The translations under genes were made by a program, and so were the position numbers. A stretch of DNA of 25,540 nucleotides from a virus. Position 1 is the first letter of the stretch. Each line of letters starts with the position of its first letter. The notes beneath the pieces are model-generated. The model was not told the origin of the DNA and searched no databases. It saw only the letters and a list, made by a program, of their open reading frames with translations. Location of the stretch: positions 1 through 25,540 of the IMG/VR virus record IMGVR_UViG_3300001517_000005; one strand, 5' to 3'. This document shows, piece by piece, positions 1-25,540 of the stretch.

Positions 1-150
1 GAAGCGTTGGCTCACCTGCGCCGCTATCTTGATAATAATTAACAACAATCTAATTTTCATCTTCTTCATACACGACATTAAAGATGTGTGTATTCAGCCC
101 ATCAAAACTTTTATCTATTTTATCAAAATCAGTGATAACACCTGGTTTGT
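1..150. repeat. Terminal direct repeat, copy A. Identical to 25391..25540; circular-closure overlap or terminal redundancy of a 25,390-bp unit.
   Basis: The first 150 nt (gaagcgttggctcacctgcg...cctggtttgt) recur exactly at the window end. The repeat lies inside a coding frame that stays open across the junction. Confidence 0.95.
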
Positions 151-3100
151 AATAAGATGGTTGATTTTCTTCAACCTCCCATTGTGTATATGGGTCATAT
201 GTTTTATCAATAAAATCACTTGCTCTAAAGTAATACATATTAGTTCTAAAGCGAACATCATTTTGATAATAATTTACATAGCAAAAACCAATTTTATGGT
301 CTGGGTTGTCATCTTCGTATCTATCATCATCAATTATATTAAAACTATTCATACCAGTAGCGTCTTCAAAGAATGTTTTTGTAACTTTATCATATAAACA
401 ATTACTAGGCGCGACCAAGTCGCCAATCTTATCATAAGTCTACACTGGTATCATATCACGAATTAACACATTGTCATAATAGATGCGGCATCCATAAATA
501 CCAATACCCGCTAATCCGTGCTCGTAATTACCTGCATTATTATTAGCAAATAAGTATAACGGTACAGGCATACGCGCATTTTCACTTTGTAATGGATTCG
601 TATAAGTAAATGTTGCATTACTATAACCATCGCGAGCGCTAGCATAAATACCAGAGTTTTCACTCCAACCAACAGCGTTTTCTTCTGTTAAGGTGAGTTG
701 GCTACTATAATAACCAGCCTTTGCTTCATAAGTATTGACGCCTGTTAATTCTCCACTATGATATTGGGTTTGGTTATTAAATCTCATAAAGTAAGACCCT
801 GAACCAGAAGAAGCACCAAATAAATAGCCGTATGCGCCATTCACTTGATGGAGTGGAACATTCTCATCTACTCGCTTACATTCCATAATAACAGTCAGTT
901 TAGACATATCTTGTGCCGTAACGCCTGTATTTATATAAGCGTGGTTCATAGTCCATTCTGGATGGAGACCTTCATAATCGCCCAAATCATTGTGCTATAA
1001 GAATAAGAAGCGATGTGGATAATCTATTCCATCTTCGTCTCCTGGTTCTGCTACTGTATTGTATATAACATCAATACTAGTTAAACCACGAAGAGCTTCA
1101 AAATTAACTGCGCCACGATATTGAACTATGCCGTCATCTGCATAAGAAGGTTTGAAAGCATTAAGATTTAAACCTAAATCAAATAATGTTGTAGTTGTTT
1201 CAAAGTCAATTAACCTATAAGAAATTGAACTACTACCGATCCATTTCTCTTCATTAACTTCATCTACATAATATCTTACTGGCGTAGAATAAGAAGAAGC
1301 CATATACAAGATATTGTATTCACTGCGGATATCATCGTATTGCAGTAATGCACTAGAGCTATATCCATCAATTTGACCTGCTTCATAATACTCTGGCCGA
1401 TAAAGATTTAAATTGATGATATCCCTTAAGCGCACGCCACCAATGCAGTCACTTTCATTGATTGTAATAAGGCTTGTATTAAGCGCCGAAAAGACACTAG
1501 ATAATTCTTGTTTATAATGAAGCAAGACATTTTTAGTGCGCTCTGCCTCAATCTCTTCAAATGTAATTATGATAGGGGAGGCTTGTGTTAAAGCAGAAAG
1601 GCTTACCTCACCATTATAAGACCTACTGGTATCCATCTAGTAACCTTCTGGTTTATATTCACCAATAGGAATAATGTCATTTAAAGTGCAGTCTAAAAAG
1701 AAGTCTAGCGCGTTGATTGTAAAGGTCTATTGATTGGGCTCTTCTTGCCCTTCTGTATAGAAACTAACTACAATCTAGTAATCTATTGGTTTGTAATAGA
1801 TTTGAATTACTCCAGCATTAATTACATTATCATAAGTATCTAATGAGCCAGTATTATAAATCTTTCCTGTCTCATACTCTACTGTATGATATCTATCTAA
1901 ATCAATTCCTAATTGACTTAAAGAAAACTCATTAGCATAACTATTTTTATATTTAGAAGTAATTGTTGTGGTTGCAATGCGCGCCCACCCTGGATAAACA
2001 CCAGCGTAATATTCTACAAAAATACGATTTTCCATACGAGGATACCGCACGGAATAACTTAACTCAATAGTGTCATAACTTACTAAATCAGTAGCATTAT
2101 AATCTACAAGATATCCTTCATTATAATGGATTTGGTTGGGCCGATATGCAGAGATATTGATTATATCTTTTAATGTTATACCATCGTAAAATGATGTTTC
2201 ATTAACATTAACAATAGCAGTTGTAATCTACTGCCAAAGCCCATCATCATCTTCTTGGTAATAACCTACTAAAATATTTTTGCTGCGCGCGTTCTCAATT
2301 TTTTCATACAAAATCTACATTGGGCTTGCGGCTAAAATATCTTCTACAGTTAAATCGCCTTCATATAAGATAACTGATTTATAACCTTCTGGTTTAAATT
2401 GTTGTGGTTTTACCAATTGCCCGATAGACTAAATGTTTTGTAATTGAGGATAAGTAAACTTTATAGTATCAGTAATGATATCATTATACACACCTGTGCC
2501 GTTATCCATCATATACATAACATCTAAACTATATTGAACTGGGACATAATTAATAATTAGTGTACCCAAGTATTGAAGGTTTGCATAGTTTATTTCTAAA
2601 CCATTTATATTAGTGACAACTCCGTGATTGTAGTATTCAGGGAGATATTTATCTACATCAATACCAATGCTAGCTAAACTATCATTATTCCCAGTAAAAC
2701 TAGAAGCACGAATAGTAATACTTTCACTAGATAGTAATTGTGTAGAGTTCTGGTAATATAAAAGGTTAAGTTTGAAAGCATTAGTCAAATTGGCATTAGT
2801 AGTATAGACCTCTCGTGCGCCCTTTGCATAATCACTGTGTAATACATAAGAAACAATAAAATTACCATTCTTTAATCTTTGAGTATCAGCAGCGCCAATT
2901 ACTGTAACCTCAAAGGTTAAGTTAATATCATCAAAGACGATACTGGCTTTTTTAAGTTCTTTGGTAAGACGGCTAATACGATAAAACGCATCTTGTTCGT
3001 TTGAACCTAATACTAAAAAACTTAATCGTATTGTTCTAAACTTTTCCTGTTGGCGGATATTCGTAGGCTAAATATCGCCATCTAACCAGTCATCAACCGT

Positions 3101-25390: not shown

Positions 25391-25540
25391 GAAGCGTTGG
25401 CTCACCTGCGCCGCTATCTTGATAATAATTAACAACAATCTAATTTTCATCTTCTTCATACACGACATTAAAGATGTGTGTATTCAGCCCATCAAAACTT
25501 TTATCTATTTTATCAAAATCAGTGATAACACCTGGTTTGT
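25391..25540. repeat. Terminal direct repeat, copy B (identical to 1..150)
   Basis: Direct comparison of the two window ends shows no mismatch. Confidence 0.95.

Follow-up and report, generated by a model that had tools for sequence, protein, structure and literature searches.

The viral DNA filed as IMG/VR record IMGVR_UViG_3300001517_000005, analysed here over the whole of its 25,540 nucleotides (the window), represents a complete circular phage genome; the phage is uncultivated, siphovirus-like and derived from rumen or gut metagenomes. Its genes are very probably written in translation table 15, in which TAG specifies glutamine (Gln) and only TAA and TGA terminate translation; judging from the sequence, TAG would be read by an activity that is external to the phage or belongs to an unrecognised phage product, and the genes would be partitioned between two codes. 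The recoding is confirmed as a real observation, and this kind of system, comprising small TAG-recoded phages with an integrase that avoids TAG, has already been described. New features are the lack of a suppressor tRNA and of a recognisable translation factor in a complete genome, the occurrence of a single phage family in three genetic codes, and the avoidance of TAG by the capsid, scaffold, replication-initiator and recombinase genes, the last of which stops on TAG in one relative.

Sense reading of TAG and the residue it encodes

When TAG is treated as a sense codon, the window contains 27 genes, 26 of them on the minus strand and one, the recombinase gene, on the plus strand (Table 1). 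There are 89 in-frame TAG codons, spread over 23 genes; the preliminary description had counted about 89 in 22 genes, so its codon tally holds and its gene tally is one too low. The genes free of TAG are those of the recombinase and of the small proteins g09, g17 and g24. Neither TAA nor TGA occurs in frame in about 8,100 codons (8,058), and the two alternative frames of these genes contain 218–454 TAA and 103–513 TGA codons. Coding density is 65% under table 11, 68% under table 4 (TGA as sense) and 96% under table 15; from table 11 to table 15, the median length of open reading frames (ORFs) rises from 91 to 137 amino acids (aa) and the longest from 476 to 3,034 aa. The gene-calling comparison suggested earlier is thus clearly in favour of table 15, and the gain in density exceeds the recoding criterion of Borges et al. 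(bioRxiv 10.1101/2021.08.26.457843; subsequently Nat Microbiol 2022), namely more than 10% under table 15 compared with table 11. Under table 11, a third of the genome would seem to be non-coding and all large genes would be broken up, so annotation requires table 15, which public gene callers already apply to relatives of the phage.

Homology extends across the TAG codons. Pfam models are matched end to end by the large terminase (terL), the portal, the NUMOD4 and HNH endonuclease, the tail-associated protein Tal (Prophage_tail) and the small terminase terS (Terminase_2). The 11 TAGs in terL and six in the portal gene, noticed previously, are borne out, the matches running the whole length of the models, and the HNH domain (HNH_3, residues 78–124) is indeed reached only through a TAG, at codon 45. 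The overlaps of stop and start codons at 12458, 9628, 3178, 8980 and 19102 were all found. That no gene ends in TAG follows from the way in which the genes were called and provides no independent evidence; what stands is that the C-terminal TAGs align with sense residues and that the orthologous stops are TAA or TGA. Fossil stops were considered as an explanation of these C-terminal TAGs and rejected, as Gln or other sense residues are aligned with them in orthologues. The reassignment had also been called genome-wide; this applies to the 23 genes in which TAG is a sense codon, but the recombinase gene avoids TAG, and the capsid, scaffold and replication-initiator genes are depleted in it.

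Among the Gln-type codons of the window, there are 88 TAG (about 30%), 175 CAA and 32 CAG; terL alone uses 11 TAG, eight CAA and no CAG. A codon-level comparison of the recoded relatives showed that TAG columns swap mainly with CAA and CAG, and in terL 12 of the 19 TAG-containing columns also hold CAA or CAG. In three relatives with the standard code, Gln stands opposite TAG at 27 of 55 (L013), 17 of 35 (L014) and 19 of 36 (L015) positions, or 49–53%. The genuine Gln codons of the window are matched by Gln in the same relatives at 46–55% (CAA) and 53–67% (CAG), so that TAG is indistinguishable from them in its Gln conservation. With substitution frequencies taken from the same standard-code alignments, Gln leads the runner-up by log-likelihood (lnL) margins of 40.6 (L013), 23.6 (L014) and 37.4 (L015). 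A diverse set of 150 terL sequences (35–60% identity), found with the relative P0001 as the query, is enriched 7.3-fold in Gln at the 11 terL TAG columns; column 42, which adjoins Walker A, is Gln in 113 of 137 sequences (82%) and column 152 in 107 of 147 (73%). The suggestion that TAG probably encodes Gln is therefore supported by recoded relatives, standard-code relatives and diverse terminases, all the tests run pointing to Gln; the accompanying caution, that this residue is probable but not demonstrated, still holds in a strict sense.

Uneven use of TAG, its decoding and alternative explanations

TAG accounts for 25% of the Gln-type codons in ten TAG-recoded family members, and its share differs between gene families. 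It drops to 5% in the scaffold genes (7 of 128, p = 4e-9) and to 4% in the capsid genes (2 of 48, p = 1e-4) and is highest in the terL, MuF, HNH and neck protein genes; three alternative replication-initiator families have TAG at only 5 of 66 Gln-type codons. The recombinase gene uses TAG for none of its 13 Gln codons here and for none of 47 across four orthologues. L037 is itself TAG-recoded, with 54 in-frame TAGs in 17 of its 18 genes, and codon 313 of its recombinase gene is TAG where the others have a TAA stop; this codon (L037 10937–10939) is orthologous to 6488–6490 of the window, and public calling under table 15 lengthens the recombinase by 19 aa. Being free of TAG, and ending on TAG in one relative, the recombinase can be made while the cell reads the standard code. 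The pattern is consistent with a cell that treats TAG as a stop during recombinase synthesis and otherwise as a costly or late-read sense codon. TAG would probably be read less efficiently than CAA and CAG, or only late in infection, and such poor or late reading would explain its avoidance in the most highly expressed genes (capsid, scaffold) and in the presumably early ones (replication initiator). The result may be a two-code partition between lysis and lysogeny, as Borges et al. proposed for the Topaz and Garnet phages. Avoidance limited to particular genes suggests that the recoded codon carries a genuine cost or affects timing.

No tRNA, and no tRNA(CUA) in particular, was detected in the complete genome by ARAGORN in the default, relaxed, intron and mitochondrial-type modes. 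Rfam gave no match in the genome at E <= 1, a search for T-loop motifs yielded nothing, and anticodon-arm hairpins with a 7-nt loop containing CTA were matched only at chance level. Likewise, tRNA(CUA) is missing from the scanned stretches of 26 related contigs, L036–L038 lying outside the scan. Pfam, PHROGs and NCBIfam revealed no recognisable release factor, aminoacyl-tRNA synthetase or other translation protein, the functions assigned being confined to structure, packaging, replication, lysis and recombination; nor is any gene family of the early region specific to all TAG-recoded members. With neither a tRNA nor a recognisable translation factor in the genome, the activity reading TAG would have to come from the host, a co-resident element or an unrecognised phage product. 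The simplest candidate, a tRNA with anticodon CUA that accepts Gln, would come from one of the first two sources. Suppressor tRNAs have been reported in 40% (Borges et al.) and 52% (Cook et al., PMC11210395) of table-15 phages, and the genome offers a compact, complete test case of how the roughly half of code-15 phages without a suppressor tRNA get TAG read. A general dependence of the phage family on cells that already read TAG as Gln, or a switch that works independently of tRNA, is rather unlikely. In the former case, the cells may represent a bacterial lineage of the rumen or gut, so far unrecognised, that has an amber-suppressor tRNA of its own or follows a code-15-like code; in the latter, an antagonist of release factor 1, for example, could let a near-cognate tRNA-Gln read UAG.

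The family, defined at 59–95% terL identity, comprises TAG-recoded, standard-code and TGA-recoded members. Standard-code L013, L014 and L015, with terL 77–81% identical, lack in-frame stops, and their genes hardly ever terminate on TAG. In TGA-recoded L018, L024 and L025, TGA aligns with TGG (tryptophan), and TAG terminates genes whose counterparts in the TAG-recoded members terminate on TGA. The stretches scanned of these six relatives yielded no tRNA. Mixed-code clades were likewise reported by Borges et al. With 25 kb, 27 genes, sister lineages in three codes at 70–80% terminase identity and gene-specific avoidance of TAG, this is a good model family, suited to experiments or targeted metagenomics; current understanding is not overturned by it.

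The alternatives differ in which of these observations they accommodate. Damage or artefact, either a decaying prophage or C-to-T sequencing or assembly errors turning CAG into TAG, might be suspected from the rarity of CAG (32) beside the abundance of TAG (88), one transition away. Yet a single type of stop occurs in frame (89 TAG, no TAA or TGA), assemblies made independently in different studies show TAG at the same positions, the majority of TAGs have CAA as their counterpart in relatives, two substitutions away, and the genome is circular, intact and present as a 100% identical copy in another data set. The ORFs are full length relative to Pfam models; the end-to-end matches to Pfam and the matches to PHROGs, together with more than 100 full-length terL relatives, rule out decay and artefact, so that this explanation is effectively refuted already and its probability negligible. 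It is also very unlikely that TAG is mainly a stop which is occasionally read through, by leakiness or programming, the long ORFs being minor products. The lack of a suppressor tRNA and the avoidance of TAG by highly expressed genes would agree with this, but essential single-copy genes would need many read-through events (11 in terL, six in the portal gene, 30 in that of the giant protein g01), and at 30% per site full-length terL would result from about 2e-6 of initiations. Moreover, the sequence behind the TAGs retains 79–90% aa identity among relatives, its Pfam matches extend to the ends of the models, and the context after the TAGs does not favour read-through. A meaning other than Gln (lysine (Lys), glutamate, tyrosine, tryptophan, leucine or pyrrolysine) is highly improbable: many TAG columns are variable and polar, and Lys is nearly as likely as Gln on the diverse terminases alone, but each of the three standard-code relatives separately places Gln ahead by the margins given above, exchange between TAG and CAA or CAG dominates in all comparisons, two conserved terL columns are Gln in most diverse homologues, and neither pyl nor other translation genes were found with Pfam and PHROGs.

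That the host itself always reads TAG as Gln, as a code-15-like lineage or by means of a constitutive amber-suppressor tRNA, and that the phage has adopted the code of its host, is considered unlikely, although several features speak for it. The 85% of genes with TAG (23 of 27) is nearer to the approximately 90% that Borges et al. gave for genes with the recoded codon in code-25 phages of code-25 hosts than to the 26–71% given for phages of standard-code hosts; the complete genome encodes neither a tRNA nor a translation factor, and relatives without the recombinase have TAG in almost all genes. The uneven use of TAG weighs against such a host: the recombinase genes lack TAG throughout and L037 uses it at the orthologous stop, and the capsid, scaffold and replication-initiator genes avoid TAG, although no such avoidance is expected of a codon that is ordinary and efficiently read. 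In addition, standard-code or TGA-recoded sister lineages exist at 70–80% terL identity. No bacterium is known in which TAG is read as Gln, and large Codetta screens are not known to have found any. A Topaz prophage, furthermore, lies inside a standard-code Oscillospiraceae contig (Borges et al.).

The preferred reading, a two-code genome with TAG as Gln, has difficulties of its own, of which the high fraction of genes with TAG is one. As TAG occurs in all genes except the recombinase gene and three small ORFs, including those of the helix-turn-helix (HTH) regulator and the replication initiator, a simple model of an early standard code followed by a switch fails unless the reading of TAG pre-exists. 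The residue at TAG is deduced from alignments alone, and with the diverse terL set on its own Lys comes a close second (-30.8, against -30.2 for Gln), the decisive margin being due to the closer standard-code relatives and not to that set. The nucleotide context 3′ of the TAGs shows no bias (p = 0.19) and no special feature pointing to a read-through mechanism. Neither a host nor an integrated family member was found in the genome and metagenome collections scanned, which is no proof of absence.

Genome map, recombinase and relatives

Bases 1–150 of the window match 25391–25540 exactly; the window is, therefore, a circular genome of 25,390 bp with a 150-nt assembly overlap. The phage is small, as had been said, and the stretch is the whole genome plus this overlap. 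A 25,420-nt contig from sheep-rumen run SRR873606 is 100% identical to it, and megablast against GenBank phages gave no match to the whole genome. The G+C content is 35%, and GC skew is negative over the entire window. Relatives detected with terL form more than 100 clusters at 79–90% identity, all full length at 413 aa and located on 25–28 kb contigs with the same gene order in many metagenomes, which indicates that the genes are kept by selection. A 5.7-kb fragment of a 90%-identical relative (L033; GCA_016280685.1, contig JAEEHE010000017.1) is binned in a public metagenome-assembled genome, which might be a hint of the host or a binning error. The nearest standard-code terminases belong to Clostridium, Bacillus, Enterococcus and Listeria phages, and Shine-Dalgarno (SD) motifs precede 23 of the 26 minus-strand starts; together, these features suggest a Firmicutes host.

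Table 1. Features of the window, listed by position, with genes called under TAG as a sense codon
Feature	Position	Strand	Evidence and remarks	TAG codons
Terminal direct repeat	1..150	.	exact duplicate at 25391-25540; assembly overlap of circular 25,390-bp genome	
g01, giant tail-region protein, N-terminal part	1..3178	-	ATG at 3178; in frame across the junction into 25390->19467	
g27b, acidic protein, 67 aa	3178..3381	-	own SD (GAGGAGG), ATG at 3381	1
g27a, 104 aa, tail assembly chaperone position	3374..3688	-		2
g26, major tail protein, 130 aa	3672..4064	-	phrog_1407, E = 8e-21; Phage_tail_2 on orthologues	3
g25, tail terminator, 136 aa	4036..4446	-	phrog_176	1
g24, 60 aa	4424..4606	-	without any Gln codon	0
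g23, tail completion / neck protein, 197 aa	4623..5216	-	phrog_5	4
Non-coding region upstream of recombinase	5217..5551	.	5 copies of CGTCCTATRTT	
Xer-like tyrosine recombinase ('integrase'), 312 aa	5552..6490	+	Phage_integrase and SAM-like domains; stop TAA	0
g20, 71 aa, hydrophobic N-terminus	6487..6702	-	phrog_1863 (function unknown)	1
g19, collagen-repeat fibre-like protein, 752 aa	6722..8980	-	Pfam Collagen	5
g18, 110 aa	8980..9312	-		1
g17, 110 aa	9299..9631	-		0
g16, head-tail connector, 99 aa	9628..9927	-	Phage_connect_1	2
g15, major capsid protein, 270 aa	10003..10815	-	phrog_544	1
g14, scaffolding protein, 195 aa	10843..11430	-	DUF4355	1
g13, MuF-like head morphogenesis, 296 aa	11571..12461	-	Phage_Mu_F 27.8 bits, just under cut-off	4
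g12, holin-like, 129 aa	12458..12847	-	phrog_13712, E = 3e-29	2
g11, portal, 477 aa	12913..14346	-	SPP1_portal 4-413/416, E = 4e-115	6
g10, large terminase (terL), 413 aa	14292..15533	-	Terminase_3 3-201/201, Terminase_3C 1-154/155	11
g09, 79 aa	15530..15769	-		0
g08, small terminase, 125 aa	15762..16139	-	Terminase_2	2
g07, DnaD-like replication initiator / helicase loader, 188 aa	16164..16730	-	phrog_186, phrog_270	1 of 15 Gln-type codons
g06, 60 aa	16750..16932	-	DUF5659, weak match	1
g05, NUMOD4 + HNH endonuclease, 194 aa	17170..17754	-	Pfam	2
g04, small HTH protein, 57 aa	17782..17955	-	HTH_60, weak match	1 (codon 53)
g03, tail-associated (Tal-like), 340 aa	18080..19102	-	Prophage_tail and Prophage_tailD1	5
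g02, distal tail protein (Dit) C-terminal domain, 121 aa	19102..19467	-	SPP1_Dit	2
g01, C-terminal part	19467..25540	-	stop TAA at 19467	

The two terminal ORFs of the window fuse in frame into a single 3,033-aa gene, g01, with 30 TAGs, which is likewise called on public contig L029. SH3_3 (residues 2384–2438) is the sole Pfam domain of its product, and there is no PHROG match. This gene makes up 36% of the genome and occupies the position of a tape-measure gene, after the major tail protein gene and two small ORFs and before the Dit and Tal genes; neither a tape-measure protein nor an endolysin is recognisable anywhere in the genome. A frameshift joining g27a and g27b was rejected, as g27b has its own SD motif and ATG. 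The portal gene has two candidate starts, ATG at 14346 (477 aa) and TTG at 14277, the latter with a better SD motif. The holin-like gene g12, lying between the portal and MuF genes, is at an unusual site for a lysis gene and is found in only some relatives. The fibre-like protein g19, encoded after the head–tail genes, has collagen-like Gly-X-Y repeats and a C-terminal part that is highly variable among relatives. Two strong terminator-like hairpins are present on the minus strand. One, at 9953–9984, lies between the capsid gene and the connector gene g16, immediately in front of the latter; the other, at 17985–18008, follows the Tal gene upstream of the small HTH gene g04 and is probably the end of the late transcript. 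An 83-aa ORF at 5188–5439 on the minus strand ('g22') is probably not a gene, since it overlaps repeat-rich non-coding DNA, has no homologue and is of odd composition.

The recombinase is XerA/C/D-like, scoring under the curated cut-offs, with at most 30% identity to phage XerD-like proteins. Together with 335 nt of non-coding DNA, its gene constitutes a 1.27-kb insertion between g20 and g23, which is missing from close relatives such as L001 and L004 and present at the same place in L036–L038. Among the five copies of CGTCCTATRTT in the non-coding region, two (5247–5257 and 5283–5293) are perfect and inverted, and two further copies flank the promoter and ribosome-binding site of the recombinase gene. 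A structured RNA, suggested by the fold of the minus strand (z = -4.9), was rejected: the inverted repeats account for the z-score, and the 11-bp arms are conserved in L036–L038 with a variable spacer, which indicates DNA binding sites and not RNA. The repeats are probably recombinase-binding (attachment, att) sites or an operator or other regulatory site.

The phage had been called temperate. The Xer-like recombinase with its clustered repeats resembling binding sites agrees with this, but no integrated copy was found in the collections scanned. All nine contigs with an identical recombinase are collinear with the circular genome, and the more than 100 terL relatives are all on contigs of at most 28 kb, none integrated in host DNA. 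GTDB genomes scanned with terL contained only standard-code prophages with 45% identity, in Bacillus and Amphibacillus; IMG/VR scanned with the recombinase gave nothing, and metagenomes scanned with the integrase of a standard-code relative gave unrelated elements only. The standard-code relatives have a different integrase, with 35% identity, at another position, beside Tal. No tRNA fragment was found in the genome. Lysogeny is plausible, and a role of the recombinase in dimer resolution is possible.

Comparison with known recoded phages

Code 15 was confirmed by metaproteomics in crAss-like phages (Peters et al. 2022, PMC9523058). The code-15 crAss-like phages and Lak megaphages resemble the present phage in that TAG is reassigned to Gln and does not act as a terminator. 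They differ in genome size (100–550 kb), in their Bacteroidetes hosts and in retaining the standard code for early genes; suppressor tRNA(CUA) is encoded by many of them and release factor 2 additionally by a few Lak phages, and neither is found in this 25 kb genome. Phages that follow the code of their host, in Mycoplasma and Spiroplasma (table 4) or Absconditabacteria (code 25), share with it a very high fraction of recoded genes and the lack of a suppressor tRNA. Here, in contrast, the recombinase, capsid, scaffold and replication genes avoid the recoded codon, and this gene-specific avoidance argues for a cell where TAG is no ordinary codon.

The closest parallels are the small TAG-recoded temperate phages of the Topaz and Garnet clades, whose integrases avoid TAG (Borges et al.). 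Garnet phages (clade mean 34 ± 5 kb) share TAG recoding, a curated circular genome or prophage of 24–25 kb and a TAG-free integrase with the present phage. They infect Prevotella (Bacteroidetes), whereas the SD sites and terL neighbours of the window suggest a Firmicutes host. The Topaz clade (22 ± 3 kb) is associated with Firmicutes, and its likeness to the present phage extends to a small genome (25.4 kb here), TAG as Gln in nearly all genes, an integrase avoiding TAG, Firmicutes-type features, circular free genomes in animal gut metagenomes and clade-mates with other codes. There are also differences: the Topaz prophage has the integrase and a host tRNA-Thr at its borders, whereas no integrated copy was found here; the short Xer-like recombinase of the present phage is encoded on the opposite strand, inside the structural block, and is missing from many close relatives; and a 3,033-aa protein stands in the place of a recognisable tape-measure protein. 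By published description, the genome would fit the Topaz phages best.

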